From positions 107,467 to 171,466 of the forward strand of contig JBDRHA010000011.1 in assembly GCA_043817235.1 (NCBI GenBank): a stretch of 64,000 bases of DNA, given 5' to 3'. The notes beneath the pieces are model-generated. The model was not told where the DNA came from and searched no databases. It saw only the letters and a program-made list of their open reading frames with translations. Below, one piece after another: positions 8,376-62,779 of the stretch (within the stretch, counting starts at the first letter, position 1; the number at the start of each line of letters is the position of its first letter). This stretch comes from Candidatus Shapirobacteria bacterium. Its GTDB lineage: Bacteria > Patescibacteriota > Microgenomatia > UBA12405 > BS750m-G30. The position numbers and the translations under genes are program-made.

Positions 8376-8430
8376 GGGAACCGGGGGCTTGTTTGTCAAA
8401 AATCGACAAAAACAAAGCCGCCCGGCTCCC
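8376..8430. repeat. 55-bp hairpin-forming repeat, copy 1 (identical to 9851-9905)
   Basis: GGGAACCGGGGGCTTGTTTGTCAAAAATCGACAAAAACAAAGCCGCCCGGCTCCC; internal imperfect palindrome GGCTTGTTTGTC...GACAAAAACAAAGCC; at the low-GC/high-GC boundary. Confidence 0.9.
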
Positions 8431-9850: not shown

Positions 9851-9905
9851 GGGAACCGGGGGCTTGTTTGTCAAAAATCGACAAAAACAAAGCCGCCCGG
9901 CTCCC
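9851..9905. repeat. 55-bp hairpin-forming repeat, copy 2
   Basis: Perfect 55/55 identity with 8376-8430; lies between the two BMP genes. Confidence 0.9.
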
Positions 9906-23730: not shown

Positions 23731-23767
23731 AGTACTTGCATGTTTAAAATTCTCATGATTAAATGTT

Positions 23768-24217: not shown

Positions 24218-24227
24218 AAATTCATCT

Positions 24228-24253
24228 GTTTCGATGTATCGATACATCGAAAC
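24228..24253. promoter_or_regulatory. 26-bp palindrome copy 2
   Basis: Identical to 23703-23728; 10 bp past the YerC-like stop, in the convergent gap with the DUF2298 gene. Confidence 0.6.
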
Positions 24254-24258
24254 GGGAA

Positions 24259-42422: not shown

Positions 42423-45400
42423 GTGAAACAGATCGCCAGATTATTATTTTTTGTTGTTCTTGGTTTAATTTTTTTCGCTAAGTCAGCTTCAGCCGCAAAC
42501 CGCTACTGGGTTGGAGGATCAGATGGCGCCAACACCAATAATACAGCCAACTGGTCAGCTTCTTCGGGCAATGCCTGCGGACTGGGCGGCGGGGCATCTG
42601 TTCCCGGTTCTTCAGATGTAGCTATTTTTAACCCAGACTGCACTAATGGCGCAACTATTAATTCTGCTCTTAATGTCGCCGGAATGGATATCAACACAGG
42701 CTATACAGGAACGATTGCCCAAGCTTCGGGGATAACTATTACTGTTGGATCAAGTGATTGGATCCAGGATGCCGGTGATTTTAACGGGGGAGATGCCTAT
42801 ATTGACGTTAATGACGACTTTACCTTAAATTCTGGGGCCGATTTTACTTCTACTTCAAATGAGTTAAAAGTAAGCGGCAATTTGACAATTAATTCCGCTG
42901 CTATTTTTACTCACAACTCCGGCATCATTACTTTTGACGGCAGTTTTTCAAAAGCCATGGCTTGCGGTGGTAAAACATTTAATGCCATTAATTTCAGTAA
43001 GGGCATCTACACTATGACTGTAGGAAGCGACTGCACTCTTCCTGTTGCCGGCACTGATCCGACTTCGTCCGGTATTGTTAACAATGGCTCTATTATAGTT
43101 ACCGGTGATTGGACCATTAACGGTAATTACACCAGTAACACTGGTTGTAGTTTGACCATGTCTGGCAATACTCTTGATGTTCAGGCCTTGGTGCTTAACG
43201 CGGGCACTTTTCCGACGGGAATAACGACTCTTTATTTATCAGGCAATCTTGATAATAGCGGCAACCTTTTACCAAATAATATTGATCTGACCTTAGACGG
43301 CTTATCGAACACCATCTTAACAAGTTGCGGGACTGCTACTTTTAATTCGGTTAATATCGACAAAGGCAGTTTAGGTTACACGGTGACCGTTGCCAGCAAC
43401 TGTACCCTGCCTATTGCCGGTACCGATCCTTCAAACACCGGCAAGGTGGTCAATAACGGGGAAATTATCATTGATGGTAATTGGAATATTGATGGCTATA
43501 CGGCCAACAGCGGTTCTGTTTTAACAATGACCGGTGACATTCTTGATATTGATGGCGATTTAACACTGAATGCCGGTACCTTTCCTCAAGGGATTACCAC
43601 TTTGTTTGTTGGGGCCAATTTGGACAATACCGGTAATCTTTTACCCAATAATCTTGATTTAAGCTTTGACTCATCAAATCACACTGCAGTTACCTGCGGC
43701 AATGCTACTTTTAATTCGGTTAATATTAGCAAAGGCAGCACCGTTTACACCGTGACTGTTGGCAGTGACTGCACTTTACCGTTGGCTGGAAGCAATCCTA
43801 TTTCTGTAGGCAGGGTTATTAACAATGGTCAAATTGATGTCACCGGCACCTGGTCGATTACTGCTTTTACCAGCAACGCTAATTCGACTTTAACAATGAC
43901 CGGCAATACTTTAGCGACCGTGGCTGACAGTCTTGTCTTAACCGCTGGCACTTTTCCCCAGGGAATTACCACCCTTTCGGTGGCAGGTAGTCTTGACAAC
44001 AGCGGCAGCCTTTTGCCTGATGGAATTGATTTAACTTTATCTTTTGGCCACGGTAATTTAAACTGTGGTAATGCGGCCTTTAATTCCATTACCGTAAATA
44101 AATCCATTATTTATACTACTACCCCTGTCAGCAGCTGCAGCACGGGTAATTTTAATTTAATCTCAGGTAGTTTTGCCAATCCGGCTTTGGCTTACACTTA
44201 TAATCTTACGGGTAATTACTCGCAAACAAATAATATTACCACTGCGGGTGGTAATTTGACTTTTAACTTTACCGGTACCGGCGCTCAGGCATTGTCCATG
44301 ATTGCCGGTACTTTTGCTTCTGTTTTTAATGTTAACAAGTCCAATAGTACCTTGTCTTTGTCCACTGCGTTTAGTACCTCGGCCCAAGCCTGCACGGTTC
44401 AGGAAGGCACTTTTGATATCAATGGCAATGCTTTTACCTGCGGTTCGGCTTTTACGATTGAAGACGGCGGTATTTTTCAATTTGAAGGCGATGAGTCTAC
44501 CACCACGCCCACTTTAAATTCCGGTTCAAAAGTAGTTTACAAAGGCAATGGCGACTCTAGCCCTGATTCTTACTCATTGCTTGAATGGGATTATCATCAC
44601 TTAACTATTAATATGACGGATAGTGATGATATAGTGACTGGCAACGGAATAGACGAGATTAACGTAATTGGCAATTTAGCCCTTGACGGCGGTATTTTTA
44701 CTGGCCCGATTCTTTTAAACGTGACCGGAGATTGGAATGACGGCTCGGGTAGTTTTAGCCACAACTCCGGTACCGTGGTTTTAAACGGCTCCAGCCAGGC
44801 AATTACTGGCACTACGACTTTTAACAACTTTACCAAAGCAGCTTCTGCAGCAGACACCCTGATTTTTCCGGCCTCTAGCCGCCAAACTTTTATGGGAACC
44901 ATGACTTTAACCGGACAAGAAGACAACTTGCTTTCTTTGCGCTCTTCTACGCCTGAAACTCAGTGGGAAATAGATCCTCAATCAGCCCGAACTATTCAGT
45001 ATTTAGACGTGCAGGATTCTAACAATGTTAGCGCTACTCCTATCACTACCTCCGGATTAAACATTACTGACTCGGATCGCAATACTGGCTGGACTTTTAA
45101 TTCTGCCCCGGAAGCAACCGCTCCTTCATCTGTCTTTCAGTCTACAGATGGAAGTGGACATATTACTTTCTCTACCGCAATTTCTGACTCGGATAGCAAT
45201 GATACTAAGCTCAGGATAGAATATTCGGACGACGGCGGGAGTAATTGGCATGACCCGGATTTAGTTTCTGCTACTCCTTCTTCAGGAACAGTAGACCTTG
45301 ATGATGATAATGCTTACCAGGTCGGCAGCGTTGACAATATAGATACTTCTGGAGGAAATATTACCTTGACCATTGTTTGGGATACTCAGTCGGCTAATAA

Positions 45401-47780
45401 TGAAAATGGAAGTTTAGATGATACTTCTCAAGACGATATTCAAATTAAAGTAATTGCCAATGATGGAATTATTGATAGTTCAGCTGCAACTAGCAATTCT
45501 TTTTCCGTGGACAACCAAGATCCTTCGGGTGGAAGTCTTAGTATAAACGCGGGGGCAGTATATGCAACTTCTACTGCGGCTACTTCAATCATTGCCGCTA
45601 CCGGCGCTTCCCAAATGATAGTTTCAGAAAGCAGTAACTTTACTGACGCCTCTTGGGAAGATTACAATACAAGTAAAGCTTTTACTTTATCTTCCGGCAA
45701 CGGCACTAAAACTGTTTACGCGAAATTTAAAGATGCTGTCGGCAACGAATCTGGAACAGTTTCCGATAACATCATCTTAGATACCATTGCTCCCCAAGAT
45801 TCCAACTCCATTAATGATGGAGCGGCTTATACTAACTCCACTAGTATTACTTTAACGATCAGCGCTTTTGATGCTACTTCCGGTTTAAATCAAATGATAA
45901 TCTCTGAGAACGCTGATTTTACTGGTGCTTCTTGGGAAGACTACGCTATGAGCAAAAGTTTAACTATTTCTTCAACCGAAGGAGCAAAAACCGTCTACTT
46001 GAAGTTTAAAGATAACGCCGGCAATGAATCAGAAGTTTTTTCTGATACTATTACTTTGGACAGTACGGCTCCGACCGGAACAATAAACATCAATAATGGA
46101 GCTGCCTACACCGGCTCCGTTAGTATTACTTTGGCTATTTCCGCCAACGATACTCTTTCGGATGTAGCCCAAGTTATAGTTTCTGAAGATAGCAGTTTTA
46201 CTGGCAATTCCTGGGAATCGTACACTACCAGCAGATCTTTTACCCTTTCCGGTGCTCCTGGTCAAAAAACTGTGTATTTAAAAGCAAAAGACAATGCCGG
46301 CAATGAATCCGGCACATATTCAGATACTATAATCTTGGACGATGCTCCACCTTCGAGTCTTTATCTAGATTCCCCCAGTCCTGACGGTTTTACCAATTCC
46401 GAGCGGCCTACTTTTAAATGGAAAGCTGCTTCGCCAGCAGATTCTGATCTATCAGAGTATCAGCTAGAAATAGATAATGGCGATAATGGCAGTTTTAGTC
46501 TAGACGGCATCCCCACTAACCGAACAACAAATTACGAAACTAGCAAATATTATGTTCGATATGAGGGGTTTTCTGACGAAAACGATGACAATAACTATCT
46601 TTATTTGCAAACTAAATCTACAGACTTTTGGACTAGCTCCCAAAATGATGGCAAACTAAGAGAGGGGAGAAGGGCTTGGAAAATAAAAGCGATTGACCAA
46701 GCAGGCAATGTTCGGGAAAATTCTGCTAAGCTGTATGTAGATTTCACCTCTCCTGGTCTTTCAGTTTTTTTAAACCAAACTAGAGTGAACGACAATCAAA
46801 CACTAGCCGCCCTAGATACTGCTCCTTTGCTTTCTTTAAGCTTAACGGATAGCAGAAGCGGCAGCAATGCTAATGACAGAATCCGCTCTGATCCTCAAAA
46901 AATTATCATTACCCTAACCAAGATCGGCAGCTTAATAGATAAAGTTTCTCAAACTATTACCATTGCCGACTTAAGTTACGATACCTCCCGATGCAGCTCG
47001 GGCATTGACCCTTTTTCGGCAGATGACGATTGCTCTGCTTTCTTTAATTACGACTTAGAAGACTTAGATTGCGACAGCAATTACCAAATCAAGATTGAGG
47101 GAAACGATTGGGCCGGAAACAAGAAAATTATCAGCTTTAATCTAAATCAGGTTTCCCAACTCTCTTTACCCCAAGAGCTGAAAGAGGAAATAGAAAAAGA
47201 AATAGAGAAAATAGAAGAAGAGAAAAATATTTCTTTAAGTCCCAAAGAAAAAGAAGAAATTAAAGAAAAAATTATTAAAGATTTTCCTCAAGTCTCTGCT
47301 CTTACTCAGTCTCCCTCAAAAATTACGAAATTGACCAAAAACATTTTTCGAGCTCTTCTGACAACCTTGAGAAAAGCCGGAAAAATTGTAAATAGCGCCA
47401 AACCCTCGATAAATCCTCCTTCAATTGCAATCTTTCAGTCTATCTTTAAAATAGGCCAAGGAATAAAAATCGCATATCAGTCTTTTGTAGCTACAGTTTT
47501 TGACAGTGAACCGACGAAAATTATTGGGGTTAAAATTAAGAACACAGAGCCGAATCAGGCAATCCTGACTTTTTCTACTAACCATCCGGCGACTATAAAA
47601 GTCAATTACGGCAAATCTACTGCTTACGGCCAGGAAAAATTCATTGATCAAAAAGGAAAAGAGCATCTAATAATTTTAGATAGTTTAGAAGCAGAAACAG
47701 AATACTTTTTTGAAATCATCGCTCAAGGAAAAAACACAGCCATTGATGCTTACCGCACATTTGAAACGCCGACCGAATAA
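42423..47780 (+). CDS. giant (1785 aa) secreted repeat-containing surface protein / putative adhesin
   Basis: Signal peptide, N-terminal RYWVGGSDGANTNNTANWS motif (autotransporter-associated beta-strand-repeat-like), 4 tandem ~130-aa units, 4 tandem ~91-aa units (...SENADFTGASWEDY...KTVYLKFKDNAGNES...), a charged EKEIEK segment, C-terminal FN3-like domain. Confidence 0.8.
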   Translation: MKQIARLLFFVVLGLIFFAKSASAANRYWVGGSDGANTNNTANWSASSGNACGLGGGASVPGSSDVAIFNPDCTNGATINSALNVAGMDINTGYTGTIAQASGITITVGSSDWIQDAGDFNGGDAYIDVNDDFTLNSGADFTSTSNELKVSGNLTINSAAIFTHNSGIITFDGSFSKAMACGGKTFNAINFSKGIYTMTVGSDCTLPVAGTDPTSSGIVNNGSIIVTGDWTINGNYTSNTGCSLTMSGNTLDVQALVLNAGTFPTGITTLYLSGNLDNSGNLLPNNIDLTLDGLSNTILTSCGTATFNSVNIDKGSLGYTVTVASNCTLPIAGTDPSNTGKVVNNGEIIIDGNWNIDGYTANSGSVLTMTGDILDIDGDLTLNAGTFPQGITTLFVGANLDNTGNLLPNNLDLSFDSSNHTAVTCGNATFNSVNISKGSTVYTVTVGSDCTLPLAGSNPISVGRVINNGQIDVTGTWSITAFTSNANSTLTMTGNTLATVADSLVLTAGTFPQGITTLSVAGSLDNSGSLLPDGIDLTLSFGHGNLNCGNAAFNSITVNKSIIYTTTPVSSCSTGNFNLISGSFANPALAYTYNLTGNYSQTNNITTAGGNLTFNFTGTGAQALSMIAGTFASVFNVNKSNSTLSLSTAFSTSAQACTVQEGTFDINGNAFTCGSAFTIEDGGIFQFEGDESTTTPTLNSGSKVVYKGNGDSSPDSYSLLEWDYHHLTINMTDSDDIVTGNGIDEINVIGNLALDGGIFTGPILLNVTGDWNDGSGSFSHNSGTVVLNGSSQAITGTTTFNNFTKAASAADTLIFPASSRQTFMGTMTLTGQEDNLLSLRSSTPETQWEIDPQSARTIQYLDVQDSNNVSATPITTSGLNITDSDRNTGWTFNSAPEATAPSSVFQSTDGSGHITFSTAISDSDSNDTKLRIEYSDDGGSNWHDPDLVSATPSSGTVDLDDDNAYQVGSVDNIDTSGGNITLTIVWDTQSANNENGSLDDTSQDDIQIKVIANDGIIDSSAATSNSFSVDNQDPSGGSLSINAGAVYATSTAATSIIAATGASQMIVSESSNFTDASWEDYNTSKAFTLSSGNGTKTVYAKFKDAVGNESGTVSDNIILDTIAPQDSNSINDGAAYTNSTSITLTISAFDATSGLNQMIISENADFTGASWEDYAMSKSLTISSTEGAKTVYLKFKDNAGNESEVFSDTITLDSTAPTGTININNGAAYTGSVSITLAISANDTLSDVAQVIVSEDSSFTGNSWESYTTSRSFTLSGAPGQKTVYLKAKDNAGNESGTYSDTIILDDAPPSSLYLDSPSPDGFTNSERPTFKWKAASPADSDLSEYQLEIDNGDNGSFSLDGIPTNRTTNYETSKYYVRYEGFSDENDDNNYLYLQTKSTDFWTSSQNDGKLREGRRAWKIKAIDQAGNVRENSAKLYVDFTSPGLSVFLNQTRVNDNQTLAALDTAPLLSLSLTDSRSGSNANDRIRSDPQKIIITLTKIGSLIDKVSQTITIADLSYDTSRCSSGIDPFSADDDCSAFFNYDLEDLDCDSNYQIKIEGNDWAGNKKIISFNLNQVSQLSLPQELKEEIEKEIEKIEEEKNISLSPKEKEEIKEKIIKDFPQVSALTQSPSKITKLTKNIFRALLTTLRKAGKIVNSAKPSINPPSIAIFQSIFKIGQGIKIAYQSFVATVFDSEPTKIIGVKIKNTEPNQAILTFSTNHPATIKVNYGKSTAYGQEKFIDQKGKEHLIILDSLEAETEYFFEIIAQGKNTAIDAYRTFETPTE

Positions 47781-52127: not shown

Positions 52128-52508
52128 ATGACTGAACCAAGATCATTAACTAAAATTATCATTGGCTTTGGTAAAATCTGGCTAAAGCCAAAAAGAAGCA
52201 AAGGAATTCGTATAATTCTTATTTTAATCGCCCTGCAAATACTAACTATCGTTTATTTTTTTACTAAGCTCCCCCCCCAAATACCTCTTTATTTTTCCCT
52301 TCCCTGGGGAGAATCTCAGCTTACTTCTTCCTTTTCACTTTTGCTCCTTCCGCTTTTTTCTTTAATCGTCCTGTTTTTCAATCTTTTTCTGGCTAGCTCT
52401 TTAATAGAAAACAGCGACTTTCTCGCTGATTTTTTAATCATTGGAAGCCTTATTTTCTCTCTTTTCTCCTTAATGGCTATTTTAGAGTCCATTAATCTCG
52501 CCTTATGA
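52128..52508 (+). CDS. small membrane protein
   Basis: 126 aa, 3-4 TM; translationally coupled between the GT2 and GT4 genes. Confidence 0.3.
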   Translation: MTEPRSLTKIIIGFGKIWLKPKRSKGIRIILILIALQILTIVYFFTKLPPQIPLYFSLPWGESQLTSSFSLLLLPLFSLIVLFFNLFLASSLIENSDFLADFLIIGSLIFSLFSLMAILESINLAL

Positions 52509-53551
52509 CCAATCTGCTTACCCAGCCGCTAATCTTATCTTTTCTTATTTCTCTTTTGGCCACTCCTCTAGTAATTAAAATATTCAAAAAAAATAATTGG
52601 CTGGATGATCCGAAAAAAAATAAACATCCTAAGGTAATCCATCAAAAACCATTGCCAAGAGGCGGAGGAATAAGCGTTTTTCTGGCTGTTTTGCTTACAG
52701 CTACTTTTTTTCTTCCTTTAGACAAACATCTTGCAGCTATTTTGCTGGCGGCCCTTTTAACTACCATCGTCGGAGTAATTGACGATCTTAAAGACCTTAG
52801 CCCTTACTGGCGCTTCCTTACTAATTTATTAGCCGCTCTAATAATAATTTTAGGCGGAATCGGAATTAGTTATATTACCAACCCCTTTGATACTGTTTTT
52901 CACCTAGACCAGTTTTACATAGGATCAGTGCCCATACTAAAAATCGGCCTTACTCTTTTTTGGCTAGTCTGGTGCATGAATATTGTCGGCTGGTCCGGCG
53001 GGGTAGATGGCCAACTGCCCGGTTTTGTAAGCATTAGCGCAGTTATTATTGGCTTGCTTTCCCTAAGATTTTCTCAAGATATTACTCAATGGCCCGTGAT
53101 CGCTCTTTCTGGAACTGTAGCCGGAAGTTATTTAGGCTTGCTTGTTTTTAACGCTTATCCCCAGAAAATTATCCCGGGATATTCGGGAAAGAGCTTAGCT
53201 GGGCTAATGCTGGGAACTTTAGCTATTCTGTCAGGCGCTAAACTTAATACGGCCATTCTTGTTCTGGCCCTTCCGATGATTGACGGCGGATTTATTATTA
53301 TCCGCCGAATCTTAAAGAAAAAATCCCCGGTTTGGGGGGATGCTCAGCATCTTCACCATCTGCTCCTAAAAATCGGCGTTCCCAAGCCAAGAATTGCTCT
53401 TTTCTACTGGATCTTCTCCCTAATTTTAGGATTAATAGTTCTGAATCTTAATAGCAAACAAAAGCTCTATTTTTTAGCCATGGCTATTATTGCTATTGGC
53501 GCAGGAGTTCTGGTATTAGAAGGATTAATCAAGAAAAAAAGGCTAGGGTAA
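52505..53551 (+). CDS. GT4-family polyprenyl-phosphate sugar-1-phosphate transferase (MraY/WecA-like)
   Basis: 10-11 TM segments, IDDLKDL, NAYPQKIIPGYSGKS motifs. Confidence 0.6.
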   Translation: MTNLLTQPLILSFLISLLATPLVIKIFKKNNWLDDPKKNKHPKVIHQKPLPRGGGISVFLAVLLTATFFLPLDKHLAAILLAALLTTIVGVIDDLKDLSPYWRFLTNLLAALIIILGGIGISYITNPFDTVFHLDQFYIGSVPILKIGLTLFWLVWCMNIVGWSGGVDGQLPGFVSISAVIIGLLSLRFSQDITQWPVIALSGTVAGSYLGLLVFNAYPQKIIPGYSGKSLAGLMLGTLAILSGAKLNTAILVLALPMIDGGFIIIRRILKKKSPVWGDAQHLHHLLLKIGVPKPRIALFYWIFSLILGLIVLNLNSKQKLYFLAMAIIAIGAGVLVLEGLIKKKRLG

Positions 53552-54361: not shown

Positions 54362-54440
54362 TTTTAAAGTTTAGCAAACAGCTTTAGGCTTGGCAAGACC
54401 AAGCTGTTTTTGATAAAATTAAGAAGTCTTAGATTTTCGC

Positions 54441-54514
54441 GGGCCGTTAGCTCAGTTGGCTAGAGCACTGTCCTGATAAGACAGGGGTCTCAGGTTCGAG
54501 TCCTGAACGGCCCA
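54441..54514 (+). tRNA. tRNA-Ile (anticodon GAT)
   Basis: 74 nt; acceptor stem GGGCCGT/ACGGCCC, D-arm GCTCAGTTGGCTAGAGC, anticodon loop CTGATAA, T-arm TCAGGTTCGAGTCCTGA; no encoded CCA. Confidence 0.85.
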
Positions 54515-54551
54515 CAATTCTAGATATAGTTTCTGGAGCGGGTTCCCTCCT

Positions 54552-54605
54552 GGCCGCGCCCGCACACGCAAGCGATTTTCATTTAATACAAGATTAAGTT
54601 TCTCC
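54552..54605. repeat. modular intergenic element, copy E (module 3 only)
   Basis: GGCCGCGCCCGCACACGCAAGCGATTTTCATTTAATACAAGATTAAGTTTC is shared with copies at 56490-56560 and 57990-58040; followed by an extended -10 TGGTAGAAT at 54622-54630. Confidence 0.75.
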
Positions 54606-54636
54606 TTTAAGTAAGTGATTTTGGTAGAATTAATCA

Positions 54637-55791
54637 ATGAAAATCCGTAGCTTTACTAAACTATTTTACATTTTTCAATTTTTCACTGATTTTGTTTTCA
54701 TATACGCTGTTGAAAAGTTATTTATGCTAAATAGAGGCCTTAATCTTTCTCAAATCGGTATCTTGCTTTTTCTCTGGTCAGCTATGACTTTATTACTAGA
54801 AGTGCCTAGCGGCGCAATTGCTGATCGTTGGAGCCGAAGAAAAATGCTAATTTTGTCAGGCATCTCTTACTCCCTATGTTACTTTCTTTGGATTTTTAGC
54901 CACTCTTTTTGGCTCTTTTTATTTGGCTTTTTGCTAAGAACCATTGGCAGTACTTTTTCTTCCGGAACCCTTCAGGCTTATGTTTATGATTTTTTAAAAA
55001 CAAAAAAAGCAGAAAACCACTTTGAAATAATCTGGGGAAAAGGTAACGCTCTAAGGACTTTGGGCATTGGAATTGCAGTTGCTCTGGGTGGTTTTATTAG
55101 TGAAATTTCTTTTACGATAACCGTCTTTCTTTCTGCCTTGCCAGTGTTAACAACTGCCATTATTGCTTTTATTTGGCCAGAAGTGGAAATAGCTCAATCA
55201 ACCCAAGAAACCAAGTACTGGCAGTTTGTCAAAAACTCATTTAAAACCATTAAAGAGAGCAAGGTACTTCTTAGACTAATGATTTATCTAGCCATTGTCC
55301 TAGCTTGGTTAGCTAGTTTAGAAGAATTTAATGATATTTATTTAAATTCCCTAGGATTTTCAAGATCAATAATTGGTCTTATTTTTGCTCTAGCTGCTGC
55401 AGGTCAAGCTCTAGCCAGCAGCCTAGCTCATAAGTTTAAAAAACACTCTTGGCTAATAATTAATTTGTCAGTAATAATCACTGCCCTGATTATGTTCACA
55501 GCCGCAATTATCAAACACCCAATAATGGCAATAGGAATTTTGTTTCTAGGAGTAATGATGGAATTTGTTTCCGTTATTAAAGAAAGTATTGTCCAAAAAG
55601 AAACCAAATCTTACCAGCGGGCCACTGTTTCTTCAATGAGTGGTTTAATCATGAATCTTATTCCCCACCAACTTGCTTTTGGCTTTATTGCTAATTACTA
55701 TAGCTTTCAAGTCGGCTATGGTTTTTTTGGAATATTCGTCTTGTTATACTTTTTAATTACTCTTTTTGTCCCCAATAATAAAAACCGCTAA
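54637..55791 (+). CDS. MFS transporter
   Basis: 12 TM; GAIADRWSRRKML (MFS motif A). Confidence 0.7.
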   Translation: MKIRSFTKLFYIFQFFTDFVFIYAVEKLFMLNRGLNLSQIGILLFLWSAMTLLLEVPSGAIADRWSRRKMLILSGISYSLCYFLWIFSHSFWLFLFGFLLRTIGSTFSSGTLQAYVYDFLKTKKAENHFEIIWGKGNALRTLGIGIAVALGGFISEISFTITVFLSALPVLTTAIIAFIWPEVEIAQSTQETKYWQFVKNSFKTIKESKVLLRLMIYLAIVLAWLASLEEFNDIYLNSLGFSRSIIGLIFALAAAGQALASSLAHKFKKHSWLIINLSVIITALIMFTAAIIKHPIMAIGILFLGVMMEFVSVIKESIVQKETKSYQRATVSSMSGLIMNLIPHQLAFGFIANYYSFQVGYGFFGIFVLLYFLITLFVPNNKNR

Positions 55792-56360
55792 TGAATAGCC
55801 TAATTTCAAGAAAACTAAAAATAATCATAATTGATGCCCCTAGCTTAACAAAAAAACAGATAAAAGATAAAAAAGGGCTGCAAGCGCTTTGTTTTGGCAG
55901 CCTTGACCCTCAAGAAATAGAAGAAGATTTTTGCCATCCAGAAACTGCCCATGTTTTAGCTTACCTTAATAAACAACTGTCAGGTTGGGCAGGAATTCAC
56001 CTTGAAAACACAATTTACAACAACAAGAAAATTAAACTAGGCGGCTTTGGTATTTGCACCCATCCAAAACATCGGCAAAAAGGAATCGCCAGCAAAGTAT
56101 CTCAAAAAGCAATGGGGTATTTAAAACAACAAAAGTGTGATTTGGCATTTTTATCGATTGATCCTTCCAAAAAAGGTCCAAAAGAACTTCACCAAAAAAC
56201 CGGATTTGTTAGTCTGCCCAATAATTTTTCTTGGATAAGTAGATCAGGAAAAAGAAAACTAGGAAAGGAAGGAATGATTGCTCCCCTTTCTTCTCCAAAA
56301 ATATTTAAGCAAATACTCAATGGAAAAGAAATTCTCCATATAGCCAAAGGATATTGGTAG
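55791..56360 (+). CDS. GNAT-family N-acetyltransferase
   Basis: ...GGFGICTHPKHRQKGIASKV... GNAT motif A-like; start codon overlaps the MFS stop. Confidence 0.55.
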   Translation: MNSLISRKLKIIIIDAPSLTKKQIKDKKGLQALCFGSLDPQEIEEDFCHPETAHVLAYLNKQLSGWAGIHLENTIYNNKKIKLGGFGICTHPKHRQKGIASKVSQKAMGYLKQQKCDLAFLSIDPSKKGPKELHQKTGFVSLPNNFSWISRSGKRKLGKEGMIAPLSSPKIFKQILNGKEILHIAKGYW

Positions 56361-56369
56361 TTAACCCTA

Positions 56370-56560
56370 CTCGCCCAAGGGGCGAGAAAATCGCGCGCCC
56401 TAAAAAAGCGAGGGCCAAGGGCCCGAGCTTAACCGTTGTTCGGGGAGGTTCGGATTTGTTGGTAAAGATCCACCACTGAAGAAATCACAAGGGGATCAGG
56501 AAAATGCTGGGCCGCGCCACCCTTCGTGACTTTCAATTAATACAAAATTAAGTTTCTTTT
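56370..56560. repeat. modular intergenic element, copy A (modules 1+2+3)
   Basis: CTCGCCCAAGGGGCGAG hairpin, AAAATCGCGCGCC, ...AAAAAAGCGAGGGCC..., TTAACCGTTGTTCGGGGAGGTTCGGATTTGTTGGTAAAGATCCACCA, then GGCCGCGCC...TTCAATTAATACAA..TTAAGTTTC. Confidence 0.8.
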
Positions 56561-56741
56561 CTTCAGGTAAATTCTGGTAAAATCAAGAATAATTTTAAAT
56601 TACTTAAGAGCTGGCTTTGCTGTCTATTTTCTCGGCTTATTCGCCTTCCTCATAAGCCACAAAGGTGCTTTTGGCGATTTATCCTTCTACTATCTTTCTT
56701 ACTTTATCCAGCTCTTTCTTCTTTTAGAAGTCGCTAGGGTA

Positions 56742-57161
56742 GTGACTTACAAACTGAAGCTAAAACTAAAATTCAAAGGTGTGTATTTACTTTTACTTTT
56801 CTACACCATTATTAATTCTTTAGTTTTAGCCTTTTTCCCTAATTTAAGAAACTTAATTTTCAATCGCTTCGGCCATCTGCTTTCCGGGATTATTTTTTCA
56901 ATACTTGCCCACAATATTCTTAAAGCCACCAAAACAACAAGGCAACTCTCAAAACCCCTGTTTTATTTCTTTGTTTTCTGCTTTGCCAGCACCGCCGGAG
57001 TTTTTAACGAAATTATTGAGTTAATTCTAGATCTTACTGCCAGGAGCCAAAGACTCGGGCCCACTCCCGATACAGCTACTGATTTACTAATGAATACCCT
57101 TGGAATCAGTGCTTATCTTCTCTTTAAAAAAAACAATGACCAAAAAAGAAAAACTAATTGA
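56742..57161 (+). CDS. hypothetical membrane protein (start uncertain; frame is open back to 56571)
   Basis: GTG start in the ORF track; the in-frame upstream stretch is hydrophobic (AGFAVYFLGLFAFLI), so the gene may be longer. Confidence 0.35.
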   Translation: MTYKLKLKLKFKGVYLLLLFYTIINSLVLAFFPNLRNLIFNRFGHLLSGIIFSILAHNILKATKTTRQLSKPLFYFFVFCFASTAGVFNEIIELILDLTARSQRLGPTPDTATDLLMNTLGISAYLLFKKNNDQKRKTN

Positions 57162-57789
57162 GCTAGCTAAAGTCCTGCTGGTAATTATAATTCTATCAGT
57201 TGCCTTGCGCTACTTAATCCCTACTTTAACCTCGGAGGAGTTTAAGCTGTTTGTGCAAAAACTAGGACCATTAGGCCCTTTAGTAATCATTATCTACACT
57301 ACCCTTTCTCATGTCTTGGCTCCTTTAGCAGGAACGCCAGGAATTTTACTGAGCGTGGCAGTATTTGGAATATTTAAAACGATGTTTTACATCTACCTTG
57401 GAAGCATGATTAGCGCTGCTCTCAATTTCTATATCAGTCGCAAATTTGGAAGAGGCTGGGTAACCAGATTAGTAGGAAAAAGAACCATGAAGGAAGTTGA
57501 TGATTTTGTTAAAGCTTCAGGAGAAAAAGTTTTAATTTTAAGTCGAATCTTTGGCTTTTCCCTTTTTGAAATTATTTCCTACGCTGCCGGTCTAACTAAT
57601 ATTAATTTCAAAAGATATCTTATGATCACCCTATTATTTACCTTAATTCCCAATCTCTTTTTTACTTACCTCTTTAGAAACATGGACTTTTCCTCAAATC
57701 TAAATCTAGTTATCTGGCTAGCAACTCTCATTATCACTGGACTAATCTTTTCCTTTTTCATTAAAAAAGCAATTAACAAAAAGAAGTAG
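57100..57789 (+). CDS. DedA / TVP38-TMEM64 family membrane protein
   Basis: ...LILSRIFGFSLFEIISYAAGLTNINFKRYL... characteristic of the SNARE-associated/DedA family. Confidence 0.6.
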   Translation: MESVLIFSLKKTMTKKEKLIELAKVLLVIIILSVALRYLIPTLTSEEFKLFVQKLGPLGPLVIIIYTTLSHVLAPLAGTPGILLSVAVFGIFKTMFYIYLGSMISAALNFYISRKFGRGWVTRLVGKRTMKEVDDFVKASGEKVLILSRIFGFSLFEIISYAAGLTNINFKRYLMITLLFTLIPNLFFTYLFRNMDFSSNLNLVIWLATLIITGLIFSFFIKKAINKKK

Positions 57790-57817
57790 GTCTTTTTGTT
57801 TTTAATAAAAACCAAAA

Positions 57818-58040
57818 CTCGCCCAAAGGGCGAGAAAATCGCGCGCTTCTTTCTTAAAAAAAGCGAGGGCCAAAGGGAGTTTAAAACTCTTTTTTCAATA
57901 CAGCTTAACCGTTGTTCGGGGAGGTTCGGATTTGTTGGTAAAGATCCACCATCCACAAAATGGATTTGGGATTTGGCCTGATTTTGGCCGCGCCCCCGCT
58001 CGCAAGCGATCTTCAATTAATACAAGGCTAAGTTTCCTTC
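57818..58040. repeat. modular intergenic element, copy B (modules 1+2+3, with an extra GAGTTTAAAACTC hairpin)
   Basis: CTCGCCCAAAGGGCGAGAAAATCGCGCGC...; its module 2 (57905-57950) is 45/45 identical to copy A; module 3 is followed by an extended -10 TGATAAAAT. Confidence 0.8.
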
Positions 58041-58136
58041 CTTGAAAAAGCGATTTTTGATAAAATATCCTTAATATATAAACCCTACTTAATCCCCATT
58101 TCAGTTAAAGGCATTGTTTTTCGAAAAAATAGTGTT

Positions 58137-58490
58137 TGGCTAAGAAAAAATGAAAGGAATGAGTGGGAATTGCCCGGTGGGAAAATGGACAAAGGAGAAC
58201 AGCCTGAACAAACAATAGTAAGAGAGCTGGAAGAAGAGCTAGGTTTTAAAACTAAAGTAGTAAACATTATTCAGGCTTACCTTTACACTATCAAAACTTC
58301 TACCGACGAAGCGAGAGGAGTTTTAGTTGTTTCATATCTTTGTGAATTATTAGAAAAAACAGGAAATTTTGAAACCGAAGGAGAAGCTGGCCCAGCTCAA
58401 TTTAAAAAGTTCCCCATCAAAAACATTCCTTCTTTAAAAATGCCTCAGTTTTACAAAAAAGCTATTCTTAAAGCTTCAAGGCAAAAATAA
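58137..58490 (+). CDS. NUDIX hydrolase (non-ATG start; exact start uncertain, frame open from 58032)
   Basis: Nudix box GGKMDKGEQPEQTIVRELEEELGF; upstream in-frame VKGIVFRKNSVWLRKNERNEWELPGGK indicates a TTG/other start before the ORF-track position 58170. Confidence 0.6.
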   Translation, partial: WLRKNERNEWELPGGKMDKGEQPEQTIVRELEEELGFKTKVVNIIQAYLYTIKTSTDEARGVLVVSYLCELLEKTGNFETEGEAGPAQFKKFPIKNIPSLKMPQFYKKAILKASRQK

Positions 58491-58528
58491 TTATGTCAAA
58501 AAAATTAAGTTTTACGTGATTTACAACA

Positions 58529-59185
58529 TTAAACTACCCTCATTATTGAGCCTTCTTTCCCCTTCTGCTCAACAATAATTAGAGCATGGAAATTTTGATA
58601 GACTTTTACTTTTTTTGGCAATGACTTTTCAAAAAGCTCTTTAAGATTGTCATAACTCAGCTGTTTTGATATTTTTTCTCTACTAACCAATCTTTTGGTA
58701 TATTCATCAATAATAAAAGTCCGCTGGTCAGTAGCGTATAGAAGAATCGTGTCCGCGGTTTCTGGACCAATACCATAAAGACTAAGTAATTTTTCCCGAG
58801 CAGGAACCAAATCCTCCTTAGAAAAATTGTTTAGATCTTTATAATTATCAACAATAAAAGAAGCAAGGCCAAAAAGACGCCTTGGTTTTGTTTGATAAAA
58901 ACCAGCTGGCCTAATTAATTCTATTAATTTGTTAAGTTTTTTCAAAGAAGCAATGCTTTTTAAACTAAGCAGTTTTTCTTTTTTCAAATTCCTTAAGGCT
59001 AAATCAGCATTATGCCAACTAGTTCTTTGAGTTAAAATAGCACCAATAGCAATTAAGTCTCTTAACCTGGGAGTCTTTTTTTTAGCACACCACTGGGGCC
59101 AAAACTTTTCTGGGTCACCATGTCTTTTGTAAAGCTCTATATAAAGCTTATGGATTTTGTTTCTACTTCTCATCTTTTCTAGCAC
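58529..59185 (-). CDS. HhH-GPD superfamily base-excision repair protein (endonuclease III-like, no FeS cluster)
   Basis: Helix-hairpin-helix LLSLYGIGPETADTILLYA followed by a catalytic D; 218 aa. Confidence 0.6.
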   Translation of the reverse strand: MLEKMRSRNKIHKLYIELYKRHGDPEKFWPQWCAKKKTPRLRDLIAIGAILTQRTSWHNADLALRNLKKEKLLSLKSIASLKKLNKLIELIRPAGFYQTKPRRLFGLASFIVDNYKDLNNFSKEDLVPAREKLLSLYGIGPETADTILLYATDQRTFIIDEYTKRLVSREKISKQLSYDNLKELFEKSLPKKVKVYQNFHALIIVEQKGKEGSIMRVV

Positions 59186-59218
59186 TGATGAATATATTTT
59201 ACCCTAATTTTGCGAAGC

Positions 59219-59364
59219 AAAAAAATCGCGCGCCTTCTTCCTAAAAAAGCGAGGGCTAGGGGCCCGAGCTTAATCACTGTTCGGGGAGGTTCGGATTTGT
59301 TGGTAAAGATCCACCATTTCCAATATGCTCTCTGACTCGGGCGGATTTTGGGCCGCACCCGCAA
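59219..59364. repeat. modular intergenic element, copy C (modules 1+2, partial 3)
   Basis: AAAATCGCGCGCC...AAAAAAGCGAGGGCTAGGGGCCCGAGCTTAATCACTGTTCGGGGAGGTTCGGATTTGTTGGTAAAGATCCACCA...GGGCCGCACCCGCAA. Confidence 0.8.
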
Positions 59365-59863
59365 ATATACCTATAAGGGAAAATGTTTAGGAGGGTGTTG
59401 AAAAACGCTGTACAACATGCGCACCGCTGGGCGGATGTACCACATTCGCACCCGAGAGTAGCGTCAAAGCGGGACGGCGCTCCAAAATCGGGACTATTTG
59501 ATGCACTTCAGCCCACCAACAACATGCGAACTCACTTTTTCGACACCCTCTTTGTGACACATTTGACAAGATTTGGAGTCTGTGGCACATTTGTATTAGT
59601 TGGCAATATGCATCGGCGGAGAGGCTTCATTCAGGAACCAAGTCCGCCGATAGTTTCTGCTATTCTTCGTCTCGACCGATTCTCGAACGATCTTCCCTTC
59701 TCCATTGTCATGAGAGTCGAGCGTGGTGGCGTTCTATTGCCGGTTTCCACGTCTGGCTCATGGAGGTCCCCAGTTGCCGCGTTGATTCGCGGCTTGCGGT
59801 TTTCTACGATGTCTGAAACGGGCGCGTCATGCCCTTGCTCAACCCCAATCTGGAGCGATAAGC

Positions 59864-60400
59864 TTATCTGGTGTTGCTCACTTTGCCACGTGGGTAGCTC
59901 AAGAGTGATCTTCGGTGGTAAAGCGTGATGCGAGCCGCAAGAGCGGCGTTGCCCAGGAACAGCAAAGCTAGCAGCAGAAGATTGATCGTAAATTCGAGTC
60001 CGGGCGATAAGGTGCGTTGAACACCGTCGCCCAAAAATGGAACCATGTACAGCAATGCTAAGATAGTAAACAGGAGCATGTTGACAAGTGTCGCAAGAAA
60101 TCCAAATGCGACAGATATCCACAGGTAAGTTCTTGAGATTCGTGCTTGCTTTCTGCAAAAAGTCCAAACCGAAAAACCGATGACCGCTAATACGGCAGCC
60201 AGAAGCAACACGGCGGCTTGCCATATGACCCCTTCGACAAAATGAGAGATGCCACTCATTTCTCGAAAGGAGTCAAAAGCTGGCCAATACATGTAGCCTA
60301 TAAGGTAGCTCACGGGGGCAGAGAAGGCCATCAGGAGTACGCCGATGAGTGCCCCGAGGCTACAGATTGGTTTACGTAGCGTCAGCTTTTCATCGTCCAT
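59864..60400 (-). CDS. hypothetical 4-TM membrane protein encoded in a higher-GC islet
   Basis: 178 aa, hydrophobic helices, ~50+% GC unlike neighbouring genes; the overlapping ORFs 59383-59928 and 59631-60224 look non-coding. Confidence 0.4.
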   Translation of the reverse strand: MDDEKLTLRKPICSLGALIGVLLMAFSAPVSYLIGYMYWPAFDSFREMSGISHFVEGVIWQAAVLLLAAVLAVIGFSVWTFCRKQARISRTYLWISVAFGFLATLVNMLLFTILALLYMVPFLGDGVQRTLSPGLEFTINLLLLALLFLGNAALAARITLYHRRSLLSYPRGKVSNTR

Positions 60401-60440
60401 AACGTATTCTCAAGCTTGAGTATAATCCTTACCTTCATGT

Positions 60441-60980
60441 TTAGGCCTCTTGCTCAACAAAGTCAGAAAGATAGACCCCACTATCTTCATCAATTACTAA
60501 TCCTGGAAAATAATCACTAAGCACCCTAACTTCCAAAATACCCCTGATAACCGGTTGGTGCAAAACCATCGGAGGAATTACTATTGTCTCTCCCAGCTCT
60601 AATTCAACCCTTCTAATCTCGCCTTTTCTCTCCTTAATTACTTGTCTTAATATTTCTGGATCTTTTAGTTGTTTAAAAGGAATGCCTGATTCTCTTAGAT
60701 CCAAAAGATAGACATGTCCCTCCCCATTAACCCAAATTTCCTCCTTTTCATCATCTTGACCAATTTCTACTTTGCCACTCTTAAGAGCATAACGCTTCTC
60801 TCCTTTTCGATTAACGCAAGTAGGCCCCTGTCCTACCTCTAGAGATTCTGCTGAAAAAACATCTCCCCAATATTTTCCCTCGGGAACTTCATAGTCTATC
60901 CCATACGCTAGCAATGGTTCCTGGCCTTCTTCATCAAAACTTACCCGTGCTCCTGGTGGTCTTTCGGCATTAATTGACAT
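60441..60980 (-). CDS. hypothetical protein (possibly cupin-like beta-barrel)
   Basis: 179-aa ORF, low-GC codon usage, no firm motif. Confidence 0.3.
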   Translation of the reverse strand: MSINAERPPGARVSFDEEGQEPLLAYGIDYEVPEGKYWGDVFSAESLEVGQGPTCVNRKGEKRYALKSGKVEIGQDDEKEEIWVNGEGHVYLLDLRESGIPFKQLKDPEILRQVIKERKGEIRRVELELGETIVIPPMVLHQPVIRGILEVRVLSDYFPGLVIDEDSGVYLSDFVEQEA

Positions 60981-61023
60981 TAATTTATTTTATCATTAAT
61001 CACGAAAATGATATAATTTAACC

Positions 61024-61548
61024 ATGAATATTCTTGAAGAAATACGTCAAGCAAATAAAAAGCCAAAAGAGATGGCGCTTTTTTTAACCAAAAAGTTCCA
61101 ACAACAAAAACCAACTCCGAAGGAGTATCGCACTGCTCTAGAAAACGCTTCTAAAGTAGAGCAAGGAGTTTTAATTGAAACCATGGAATTTATTACCCAA
61201 GAAAACCCTTCTTTTGCCAAGCCCTTTCTGGGCATTATCATCGAATATATAGCCAGCCCGATTCCCAAGGCAAAATGGGAAGCTGCCCGCATAATCGGTA
61301 ATGTAATTAAAGAGTTACCCACTCAAGCTGAAAAAGGAATTCCCAATCTTTTGGTCAATACTAATGACCAAGGAACAGTTGTTCGTTGGAGTGCTGCCTT
61401 TGCTCTAGGAGAAATTATCAAGCATCACTCCAAAATCCGCCCTAAGCTGATGCCGAAAATAGAAAAAATCATCAAAAAAGAGCAAAACAGCGGAGTAAAA
61501 AACGTCTATCTCAAGGCCTTTAAAGAAATCGAAAAGCAATCAAGTTAA
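61024..61548 (+). CDS. HEAT/ARM-repeat protein (tentative)
   Basis: Repeated alpha-helical units (...AARIIGNVIKELP..., ...VRWSAAFALGEIIKHH...). Confidence 0.35.
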   Translation: MNILEEIRQANKKPKEMALFLTKKFQQQKPTPKEYRTALENASKVEQGVLIETMEFITQENPSFAKPFLGIIIEYIASPIPKAKWEAARIIGNVIKELPTQAEKGIPNLLVNTNDQGTVVRWSAAFALGEIIKHHSKIRPKLMPKIEKIIKKEQNSGVKNVYLKAFKEIEKQSS

Positions 61549-61625
61549 TAACTTGAAATATTTACCCTAAAACCAGCAAAGTTGGCTAAAAACGCGTACG
61601 CTTTAAAAAAGCGAAGCAAAAAAAT

Positions 61626-61886
61626 TTAGCCAAAAACAGCTTTTTTTAGGTAACCCTTAATTAAAGATTGATAGGGCACATTAATTTCATTAGCTTGCTC
61701 TTTAATCCGGTTAATCAAATATTCAGGCAAACGAATAGAAATCGCCCTCGTGGTTGGTTTCAGATTAGGAAAAGAGACTCTTTGGAAGTCACTAGACTCA
61801 AAATAATCAGCTAAATTAATTTTAGCCCAAAACTCTCTTTCTTTATCTTCGTCTTTAAACTTTGGCAGTTTAAGTGGCTTTTTCAT
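61626..61886 (-). CDS. brnA: BrnA-family antitoxin
   Basis: MKKPLKLPKFKDEDKEREFWAKINLADYFESSDF... plus a C-terminal RHH-like region; start placed at the internal Met, overlapping the BrnT stop by ~17 nt. Confidence 0.55.
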   Translation of the reverse strand: MKKPLKLPKFKDEDKEREFWAKINLADYFESSDFQRVSFPNLKPTTRAISIRLPEYLINRIKEQANEINVPYQSLIKGYLKKAVFG

Positions 61887-62166
61887 GTAATTTCCTTTCT
61901 TTTTTATTAACATCTCGGCCAGAAATAACCCTGACCTTTTTGCCCCTAAGGGTAAAAACAACAAATAATAATCTATTTCTTTTTGTTTCTCCTAATAAAA
62001 TGAATCTCTCCTCTTTTTCCGAGTGAAACCGGTCTTTACCAATTACCTTGCTTTCATCAAAAAAAACTTCTTCGCATTCCTTATTAGTTACTTTATGCTT
62101 AATCCAGTTTTTTTCTCTATTCCCTTTATCCCAAATAAACTCGACCGAATTTCCTATTAATAACAT
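61870..62166 (-). CDS. brnT: BrnT-family (DUF497) toxin
   Basis: FIWDKGNREKNWIKHKVTNKECEEVFFD...RFILLGETKRNRLLFVVFTLRGKKVRVISGRDVNKKERKLH matches the BrnT/DUF497 pattern. Confidence 0.65.
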   Translation of the reverse strand: MLLIGNSVEFIWDKGNREKNWIKHKVTNKECEEVFFDESKVIGKDRFHSEKEERFILLGETKRNRLLFVVFTLRGKKVRVISGRDVNKKERKLHEKAT

Positions 62167-62219
62167 TTCTGTATCTCTTTATTGTATATACTGTGTTATA
62201 CCTTGTCAAGGGTAATTTC

Positions 62220-62326
62220 AAAATCGCGCGCTTTCCTTTAAAAAAAGCGAGGGCTAAAGGCCTGACCCGCCTGCCGGCAGGCGGGGCTTCCATCGTTAGG
62301 CGGGATTGAGCGAGGTTCGGATTTTT
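62220..62326. repeat. modular intergenic element, copy D (module 1, degenerate module 2, with a 20-bp GC palindrome)
   Basis: AAAATCGCGCGCTTTCCTTTAAAAAAAGCGAGGGCTAAAGGCC..., CCCGCCTGCCGGCAGGCGGG (62266-62285), ...GAGGTTCGGATTTTT. Confidence 0.7.
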
Positions 62327-62353
62327 CTATAAGCTTTTGTTAAAATATAATTT

Positions 62354-62599
62354 ATGCCCAAATGGTCGCTAAATATTTTGACTGATAATGCTCTGGCCAA
62401 AATGAAAAAGCACGGATTAAGCCAGGGAGAAATCCAGGGCGCTTTTGAAAGATATCAAAAAAAGGAAAATGGCCCTATTTCTGGTTGTACTAGTTTTATA
62501 AGAATCTTGAGGAGCCGGGAAATCGGGGTTATTGCCCGGCAAAAAGAAAATGGCTTGTGGTGTATAGTCAGCGTCTGGCAAAGAAAGCTTTATAAATGA
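62354..62599 (+). CDS. hypothetical small protein
   Basis: 81-aa ORF directly downstream of element copy D. Confidence 0.3.
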   Translation: MPKWSLNILTDNALAKMKKHGLSQGEIQGAFERYQKKENGPISGCTSFIRILRSREIGVIARQKENGLWCIVSVWQRKLYK

Positions 62600-62676: not shown

Positions 62677-62702
62677 TGTTTCGATGTATCGATACATCGA
62701 AA
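62677..62702. promoter_or_regulatory. 26-bp palindrome copy 3
   Basis: GTTTCGATGTATCGATACATCGAAAC is identical to the copies flanking the YerC-like gene; ~75 bp upstream of the 62780 ORF. Confidence 0.6.
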
Positions 62703-62779
62703 CATAAAAGGGCAATATGTCTTGGCATATTACATTTTCTCCTTGACACCAGAGAGAATAAATATTATCCTAGTTTCAC

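Follow-up and report, generated by a model that had tools for sequence, protein, structure and literature searches.

In a 64-kb window of a metagenome-assembled genome (MAG) of Candidatus Shapirobacteria bacterium (the whole stretch of contig JBDRHA010000011.1 analysed here), a family of composite intergenic repeats divides the interval directly 3' of the tRNA-Ile(GAT) gene, 54516-62334, into blocks of different genes. We interpret this interval as a conserved hotspot for gene cassettes, with the repeats as the boundaries of the cassettes, and give this interpretation a probability of about 0.85. A previous reading, made from the letters alone (the sequence-only reading), had suggested a cassette array or recombination hotspot beside a tRNA. 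Our analysis supports this suggestion: the interval is an insertion relative to a close relative, the same modules bound different cargo in five other species, and breakpoints fall at the motif CCAC(C)A. As we picture it, the locus would be a tandem array of four cassettes of 1.4-3.0 kb, none with an integrase, that accreted at the 3' end of the tRNA gene.

Junction modules and the cassettes between them

The sequence-only reading had described five copies of a modular element, termed E, A, B, C and D, and we recovered its modules M1, M2 and M3 where it had placed them. Within the window, these modules are confined to 54516-62334, with about 0 occurrences expected by chance. A 38-nt core of M2, GTTCGGGGAGGTTCGGATTTGTTGGTAAAGATCCACCA, is present in three exact copies (56438-56475, 57914-57951 and 59279-59316). 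The two-box motif M1b (AAAATCGCGCGC ... AAAAAAGCGAGGGC) is found four times (56387-56415, 57835-57870, 59222-59256 and 62220-62254), and M3b (TTCAATTAATACAAGNNTAAGTTTC, allowing at most one mismatch) at 54578, 56532 and 58012, in copies E, A and B, respectively; shuffled sequences gave an expectation of 0.00 for each of the three. Comparisons with nhmmer related copy A to copy B at E=1e-27 and copy C to copy A at 6e-21, and, with copy B as the query, detected copy E at 9e-9 and copy D at 1e-4. A whole-window repeat scan, together with module profiles, revealed no copies beyond 54.5-62.4 kb, i.e., none in the other 56 kb.

The junctions measure about 145-290 nt. A complete one starts with a GC hairpin, followed by M1b and a variable hairpin; M2, which ends in CCACCA, comes next, and behind it lie a unique spacer of ~34 nt, M3 and the extended -10 box. 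Copies A and B had been reported as identical over 45 nt of module 2; the identity is genuine and in fact longer, covering 49 nt (GCTTAACCG...CCACCA), of which copy C has the last 38. It had also been argued that the element is non-coding, as the identity includes positions that would be synonymous. This argument is weak alone, because recent copies are identical anyway, but its conclusion stands, since the mosaic structure of the modules is rich in indels. A sixth, degenerate M1b lies at 61589-61617, directly 3' of the brnA stop codon. It falls below the nhmmer threshold and was called by its position and by alignment to two of the related loci described below (L056 and L057); given this copy, the BrnTA pair has M1b on both sides.

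The features of the array, in window coordinates, are as follows:

54441-54515, plus strand: tRNA-Ile(GAT), the array anchor (ARAGORN, Rfam).
54516-54636, plus strand: copy E, attL-like; spacer 54516-54551, M3 54552-54604, extended -10 TGGTAGAAT at 54622-54630.
54637-56360, plus strand: cassette 1, a Major Facilitator Superfamily (MFS) transporter and a GNAT acetyltransferase (Pfam).
56361-56590, plus strand: copy A, a full junction; hairpin 56370-56386, M1b 56387-56415, M2 56427-56475 (CCACCA), unique spacer 56476-56509, M3 56510-56558, extended -10 56575-56583.
56600-57789, plus strand: cassette 2, a DUF2238-like membrane protein and a DedA/VTT protein (Pfam).
57790-58075, plus strand: copy B, a full junction; hairpin 57818-57834, M1b 57835-57870, variable hairpin 57877-57889, M2 57903-57951 (CCACCA), spacer 57952-57985, M3 57986-58038, extended -10 58058-58066.
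58032-59185, convergent genes: cassette 3, NUDIX (plus strand, no canonical start codon) and an HhH-GPD glycosylase (minus strand) (Pfam and sequence reading).
59186-59364, plus strand: copy C; hairpin 59208-59222, M1b 59222-59256, M2 59268-59316 (CCACCA), spacer.
59365-62219, both strands: cassette 4, composite; a high-GC islet, a 179-aa open reading frame (ORF; minus strand), a HEAT-like gene (plus strand), the degenerate M1b, and brnA/brnT (minus strand).
62220-62346, plus strand: copy D, attR-like; M1b 62220-62254, GC hairpin 62266-62285, M2 variant 62306-62334 without CCACCA.
62354-62599, plus strand: orf81, the right-hand flank.

The cassette units are read as 54516-56475, 56476-57951, 57952-59316 and 59317-62334. 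Copy E lacks M1 and M2 and consists only of a cassette-specific spacer, M3 and the -10 box; it would represent the left junction, in which the tRNA 3' end meets the right arm M3. Copies A, B and C would be hybrid junctions that join the left arm of one cassette (M1-M2) to the right arm of the next (spacer-M3). In copy C, only the start of M3 is kept (its first 14 nt; GGCCGCACC at 59351-59359), cut off at the high-GC islet. Copy D would be the right junction, where M1 and an M2 variant are joined to the resident flank upstream of orf81. The order of the arms, with the right arm alone at the tRNA (E), both arms inside the array (A-C) and the left arm alone at the far end (D), points to the serial integration of circular units at one site.

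The junctions may also serve as expression boundaries. The extended -10 boxes claimed for three of them are indeed present (54622, 56575 and 58058), and overall such motifs follow copies E, A, B and D; copy D directly precedes the extended -10 of orf81, TGTTAAAAT, at 62338-62346. Four of the five matches to TTTKGNTANAAT in the 64 kb are at the tRNA-Ile locus (54408-54419, 54619-54630, 58055-58066 and 62335-62346), the tRNA's own promoter being among the matching types. The ATG codons of the MFS gene (54637; 7 nt) and of orf81 (62354) lie 7-8 nt past the -10 box, which suggests that both mRNAs are leaderless. M1 holds terminator-like hairpins on the minus strand. We infer a promoter role for M3 and its -10 box and a terminator role for M1: the GC hairpin and two-box motif of M1 would act as minus-strand terminators, and M3 would be followed by an extended -10 promoter firing into the next cassette.

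The tRNA-Ile locus in related genomes

Using the GT4 gene at 52505-53551 as a query, we found that the closest relatives are Candidatus Shapirobacteria MAGs. The orf81 and PEGA/SH3 proteins are 100% identical to those of an NCBI Shapirobacteria MAG whose locus tags begin with ABIB61_. The tRNA-Ile anchor is the same in the loci designated L020, L021/L054, L056, L057 and L061, and the PEGA/SH3 and GT4 genes keep their synteny with it. In L020, whose GT4 is 80% identical, a homologue of orf81 (63% amino acid identity) is located only 123 nt 3' of tRNA-Ile, and nucleotide homology between the window and L020 ends at 54539 and picks up at 62335. Because the L020 tRNA-Ile nearly adjoins the orf81 homologue, the whole 7.8-kb interval is, by this alignment, an insertion relative to L020.

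In the other relatives, the content at the locus is variable and the flanks are conserved:

L021/L054 (PEGA 75%): NUDIX; a Gp49-HTH toxin-antitoxin pair (HigBA-like); two GH130 genes; a VapBC-like pair.
L056 (PEGA 71%): BrnTA; NUDIX.
L057 (PEGA 66%): nucleotidyltransferase; BrnTA; NUDIX; a second NUDIX.
L060 (PEGA 58%): Ser_hydrolase.
L061 (PEGA 57%): a 255-aa ORF.

The cargo differs, but in five other related species its bounds at the orthologous locus are formed by the same modules. Profiles of M1b, M2 and M3 matched L054, L056, L057, L060 and L061 at the tRNA-Ile locus only, with E values mostly between 1e-5 and 1e-11 (L056 and L060 each had one weaker match, at about 2-4e-4). The same profiles had no significant match in about 27 more distant Microgenomates loci, and about 35 related loci contained no copies outside their orthologous parts. 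The genes of cassette 1 were not present in the relatives compared. The BrnTA cassette, by comparison, is shared by three genomes and changes rank: it opens the array in L056, comes second in L057 and closes the array in the window, in each case with M1b at its bounds. Its brnTA genes (window 61626-62166) are 81-83% identical at the nucleotide level to those of L056 (7702-8319) and L057 (8521-9138), with core genes at 65-73%. We considered whether M1b is an intrinsic part of the BrnTA module and rejected this option, as BrnTA loci in other lineages of the candidate phyla radiation (CPR; L074-L079), with BrnT 71-74% identical, have no M1b. A more distant brnTA (65%) is encoded elsewhere on the same contig in L021/L054.

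We next compared the points at which homology is lost and regained. Copies A, B and C are identical through CCACCA, cannot be aligned over the following ~34 nt, and become similar again from GGCCGCGCC. In L056, the tRNA itself ends with ...GCGCCCACCA and continues into TCCACAAAATGGATTTGGAAGTTGGCCTGATTTTGGCCGCGCC; in the window, M2 of copy B ends with ...AGATCCACCA and continues into the same flank. This match, between 57946-58004 of copy B and the tRNA-Ile flank of L056, extends over 59 nt at 91.5% identity, with the core genes of both genomes at 65-73%. It places M2 in the exact position of the tRNA 3' end, with the switch in homology occurring within CCACCA.

The tRNA 3' end also bears marks of duplication in some genomes. 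A stretch of 28 nt over the window tRNA end and its flank (CCACAATTCTAGATATAGTTTCTGGAGC; a 100% match at 54512-54539, which includes the first 24 nt of copy E) recurs in L020 behind a decayed copy of the tRNA 3' end (ACGAGTCTAAAAACTTCCACA), located 57 nt downstream of L020's own tRNA. Relative to L021, L061 carries a 26-nt insertion directly 3' of the tRNA that is a partial duplication of the tRNA 3' end, laid out as a new 3' end, 8 nt, and the displaced end CGAGTCCTGACACGCCCACCA. In L057, CCCACCA is followed 5 nt later by CCCCCACCA. Furthermore, the segment 8726-10000 of L061, comprising tRNA-Ile and a cassette, is inverted relative to the PEGA/GT4 block and has an M2 variant at its far end. 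Module 2 of copy D is of this type, a distinct variant rather than a truncated copy (TTGAGCGAGGTTCGGATTTTTCTATAAGC, 62306-62334), and it recurs in L056 and L061: its GAGCGAGGTTCGGATTTTTCTATAAGC matches the distal-end copies GAGAGAGGTTCAAATTTTTCTATAAAGTTCCACCA of L056 and GAGAGGTTCGGATTTTTCTATAAATCCCCACCA of L061.

The inversion, the duplicated tRNA 3' ends and the recurrent change of partner at CCAC(C)A all suggest that recombination takes place at the tRNA 3' terminus or close to it. We consider site-specific recombination at the CCACCA/M2 core to be the probable mechanism, with less confidence than we place in the hotspot itself. A recombinase, presumably encoded elsewhere and acting in trans, would exchange strands at or near the CCAC(C)A core. 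Such exchange would add, remove and invert cassettes, and homologous recombination between several copies could reshuffle them further.

Several points weigh against this interpretation. In global alignments against shuffles, the resemblance of M2 to the tRNA 3' end was not significant (p = 0.015-0.59). The two have in common only AGGTTCG and CCACCA, so that the long direct repeat classic for such sites is missing from the window, and an attachment (att) core would be just about 6 nt. Copy D has no CCACCA, and hence not every junction fits a single crossover point. The left breakpoint between the window and L020 is 24 nt downstream of CCACA, indicating that at least one junction was remodelled, and M1b is found without M2 on either side of BrnTA. 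In addition, M3a (GGCC...GCGATTTTC) at the left and M1b (GAAAATCGC...GGCC) at the right form imperfect inverted repeats, a feature compatible with one of the alternatives discussed below. Some of the pattern could also be due to homologous recombination between the repeats, which certainly takes place as well. Finally, the comparison draws on a limited sample of about six related genomes at the locus.

The recombinase searches point the same way. No recombinase was detected among 20 mid-size ORFs of window positions 1-50 kb (about half of those there), which were housekeeping genes or had no match, nor among the array genes, nor was one listed in the 10-kb flanks of the six related loci of the L054-L061 set. 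Likewise, viral contigs scanned for M2, the M2 variant, M1b and M3b gave either 0 matches or AT-rich chance matches, and nothing in these results indicated that the site is carried by a phage or plasmid. Neither excised circles nor empty sites were seen, although no search of the full genome or its reads was made. Apart from these points, no Phage_integrase was found among the screened ORFs (array genes, right-flank ORFs and the 20 upstream ORFs). A scan of genome contigs with the M1b pattern returned 0 matches, and the same scan of metagenome contigs returned 18, all of them chance matches in high-GC contigs (43-67% GC) without other modules.

We also tried to read M2 as a degenerate tRNA 3' half. 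This was rejected, as the similarity is not significant and the T-arm cannot form; we kept only the statement that M2 stands in for the tRNA end.

Alternative explanations and other features of the window

The alternative that survives best, though we judge it unlikely, is an "additive" flexible genomic island kept by homologous recombination alone. Its junctions would be promoter/terminator linkers and homology arms for DNA from relatives, with gene conversion homogenizing the copies. This would account for the lack of a recombinase near the locus, for the M2 core being 38/38 identical in three copies, as under concerted evolution, and for the promoter-like and terminator-like signals in the junctions; moreover, type IV pilus parts (PilO) are encoded in the window, compatible with DNA uptake. 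However, homologous recombination alone makes no tandem series in which M2, a block not derived from a tRNA, takes over from the tRNA 3' end at a sharply defined CCACCA. It also leaves unexplained both the partial tRNA 3' duplications of L020 and L061 and the conservation of primary-sequence boxes across species whose core genes are 65-73% identical.

Less probable still is a set of transposon-like or dif-module-like units with inverted-repeat ends, in which M2 would be a spacer or target and a transposase or Xer-type recombinase, acting on the inverted ends, would mobilize the units. Besides the imperfect inverted repeats of M3a and M1b mentioned above, GCGATTTTC (54572) and GAAAATCGC (56386, 57834) are exact reverse complements on either side of cassette 1, and the minimum free energy fold pairs M1b with M3. 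Among 7-8-mers, AAAATCGC is the one conserved most widely; it is inverted between M1b and M3 and is shared by the junctions of five of the six genomes. By inspection, M3b contains a short palindrome and has the dif-like layout TTAAT-ACAAG-ATTAA; no dif consensus is known for the clade. It also counts for this alternative that the pdif modules of Acinetobacter plasmids carry toxin-antitoxin pairs of the BrnTA and HigBA types. Against it, the M1b copies around BrnTA are direct rather than inverted, cassettes 2 and 3 match in just 7/9 positions of the inverted 9-mers, and neither target-site duplications nor a transposase was found. In addition, the breakpoints map to CCACCA within the junction rather than to the outer ends of M1b or M3.

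The sequence-only reading had also offered a family of leader RNAs or ribozymes, which our analysis did not support and which we regard as very improbable. According to this idea, the junctions are structured non-coding RNAs (a leader, a small RNA or a ribozyme), each transcribed from its junction. GC hairpins are present, promoter-like boxes are close by, and the single-sequence fold of copy B has z-scores of -2.3 (plus strand) and -2.5 (minus strand); for copy A, however, z is -1.2. In Rfam 15, only the tRNA (RF00005) reached the gathering score, and the junctions had no match even at E<=10, the best other matches (E = 0.7-9) all being outside them. RNAalifold found 0 consensus pairs in eight copies of the M2 region from five genomes. 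The recurrent hairpin GGATTT/AAATCC was paired in 72% of cells compared with 74% in shuffles, with no excess covariation. Moreover, the promoters are downstream of the conserved blocks and directed away from them, and individual modules are also found apart from the others (in E, in D, and as M1b by itself).

Simple tandem duplication of a single intergenic region, suggested by the fact that all copies are within 8 kb and share some identical blocks, can be set aside. The genes between the copies are mutually unrelated, and a private local duplication is ruled out because five other species have the modules around different cargo at the orthologous locus.

Turning to the cargo, most of the gene content proposed from the sequence was upheld by Pfam matches (MFS, GNAT, DUF2238, DedA/VTT, NUDIX, HhH-GPD, HEAT-like, BrnA and BrnT). 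The exception is the proposed cupin (60441-60980, 179 aa, minus strand), which had no Pfam or NCBIfam match. The islet ORF, orf81, orf209 and orf99 likewise gave no informative matches in these two databases. A paralogue of orf81, ABIB61_01535 (69% identical), is encoded on another contig (238,659 bp) of the same MAG, and that locus could hold a second array.

The NUDIX gene of cassette 3 has an unusual 5' end. Its frame is open from 58032 (ORF region 58032-58490), with no ATG, GTG or TTG before the Nudix fold, and the Pfam match begins at profile position 33 on residue 1 of a TTG ORF at 58170. From the -10 box at 58061-58066, transcription would be expected to start close to an in-frame AUA at 58074. 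The gene could therefore have a leaderless mRNA with a non-canonical start, or it could be truncated at its 5' end.

The high-GC islet noted in the sequence was confirmed, with 50-56% GC compared with about 36%. It spans about 59365-60420 and starts exactly where M3 of copy C breaks off, after GGGCCGCACCCGCAAAT. Its ORF, on the minus strand at 59864-60400, encodes a membrane-like protein of 178 aa. The islet may be foreign DNA that was acquired recently, or else a chimera of the assembly.

Repeats of other kinds are found elsewhere in the window. A 30-nt palindrome, TGTTTCGATGTATCGATACATCGAAACATA, occurs three times (62677-62706, 23702-23731 and 24227-24256); two of the copies flank a Trp-repressor-like gene (23768-24217), and the third lies between orf81 and orf209. 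A perfect 55-nt repeat forming a long hairpin (8376-8430 and 9851-9905) is located 3' of each of two tandem genes for Bmp/PnrA-like substrate-binding proteins. In addition, a 1785-aa ORF (42423-47780) contains internal tandem repeats of 372 nt (43199-44039) and 279 nt (45707-46340), with 67-75% identity.

Known systems and implications for Patescibacteria

By analogy, the array appears to resemble most an array of cis-mobilizable elements (CIMEs) or integrative and mobilizable elements (IMEs) at a tRNA gene and, in function, a sedentary integron. There is ample precedent for tandem islands, and for CIMEs lacking an integrase, that are delimited by repeated copies of the 3' end of a tRNA or tmRNA gene (PMC3146451, PMC5704250, bioRxiv 10.1101/2020.12.28.424599), examples being the ssrA islands of Dehalococcoides and the accretion of ICESt1 and CIMEs in streptococci (PMC3146451, PMC5704250). 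As in these arrays, the units here begin directly 3' of a single tRNA-type gene that is left intact (from 54516, one base past tRNA-Ile), and they are delimited by a repeat at the position of the gene's 3' end with extra conserved bases alongside. Accessory content is strain-specific in both, integrase-less members keep both att ends, and the tRNA 3' end is duplicated in some genomes (here L020 and L061). The differences are considerable: the units measure 1.4-3 kb rather than about 10-20 kb or more, no integration module was found at any of the six loci, and M2 is not a copy of the tRNA end, with which it has just 6-7-nt blocks in common. The composite junction here, of 150-290 bp, also has its own predicted outward promoter, and the host is a CPR bacterium.

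Similarly, the tycheposons of Prochlorococcus are found in streamlined genomes with few classical mobile elements, are seeded at tRNA genes, and show inversions and successive integrations that push older elements inward, with partial tRNAs marking old events (bioRxiv 10.1101/2020.12.28.424599). They differ in having a tyrosine recombinase, replication genes and, at their bounds, true partial tRNAs of ~40 nt (bioRxiv 10.1101/2020.12.28.424599), none of which was found here. We did not assign the array to this class, as it lacks recombinase and replication genes by Pfam and M2 is not a partial tRNA.

The functional analogy is with integrons. Sedentary chromosomal integrons, such as those with the Vibrio cholerae repeats (VCRs), are cassette arrays with homogeneous attC sites. 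Like them, the present array has small cassettes separated by a near-identical repeat, a cargo rich in toxin-antitoxin, GNAT and Nudix genes, and a presumed dependence on a recombinase that the cassettes do not encode. An integron proper was nevertheless rejected. There is no IntI, attI or Pc at the locus, the left neighbour is a PEGA/SH3 protein, and no screened ORF encodes a Phage_integrase. The attC site is a single imperfect hairpin of 55-141 nt with inverted R''/L''-L'/R' core sites (RYYYAAC ... GTTRRRY), whereas the repeat here is without the R''/R' sites, the junctions show only short local hairpins and weak complementarity between M1b and M3, and GTTAGGC occurs in copy D only. Integron cassettes are mostly single, promoterless, co-oriented ORFs, whereas the cassettes here hold two to five genes on both strands, every cassette lying behind an extended -10 box, and their breakpoints lie mid-repeat.

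Two further comparisons concern the boundaries themselves. Modules of the pdif type are flanked by 28-bp XerC/XerD sites in inverted pairs on plasmids. They share with the array their small, discrete size, frequent BrnTA or HigBA pairs, short conserved bounds and, presumably, a recombinase encoded elsewhere; the array differs in being chromosomal and tRNA-anchored, with BrnTA between direct repeats. BOX elements, bacterial interspersed mosaic elements with their repetitive extragenic palindromes (BIME/REP), and enterobacterial repetitive intergenic consensus (ERIC) sequences are also intergenic mosaics of conserved boxes, variable insertions and hairpins. Those families are dispersed genome-wide, independent of gene content, whereas the modules described here are restricted to one locus (the window and the related loci) and co-vary with cassette gain and loss.

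Our full-text literature searches retrieved no description of such arrays in Patescibacteria. Genomes of CPR/Patescibacteria are about 1 Mb in size and have few recognised mobile elements, and, to our knowledge, accessory-gene acquisition in this group is poorly understood. Six related species have different sets of small cassettes, with defence, repair, transport and toxin-antitoxin functions, enclosed by the same boundary sequences, and this offers a handle on gene flow in the clade. With the boundary motifs as queries, metagenomes can be mined for cassettes, co-occurring recombinases can be sought and excision can be tested for in reads; the junctions are also candidate native promoters and terminators for an uncultured group.

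We tentatively propose a more specific possibility, which we hold with low confidence. The locus may be an integron-like capture platform of Shapirobacteria, in which an unlinked recombinase would pair the ~35-50-nt M2 core, which ends in CCACCA, with the tRNA-Ile 3' terminus and move 1-3 kb cassettes, each carrying its own leaderless promoter (M3) and terminator or insulator (M1). If the recombinase is dedicated to this task, an unrelated lineage would have a system that is functionally analogous to integrons. In a platform of this kind, recombination site and cassette system would both belong to a new class, and this in a phylum considered to have few mobile elements.

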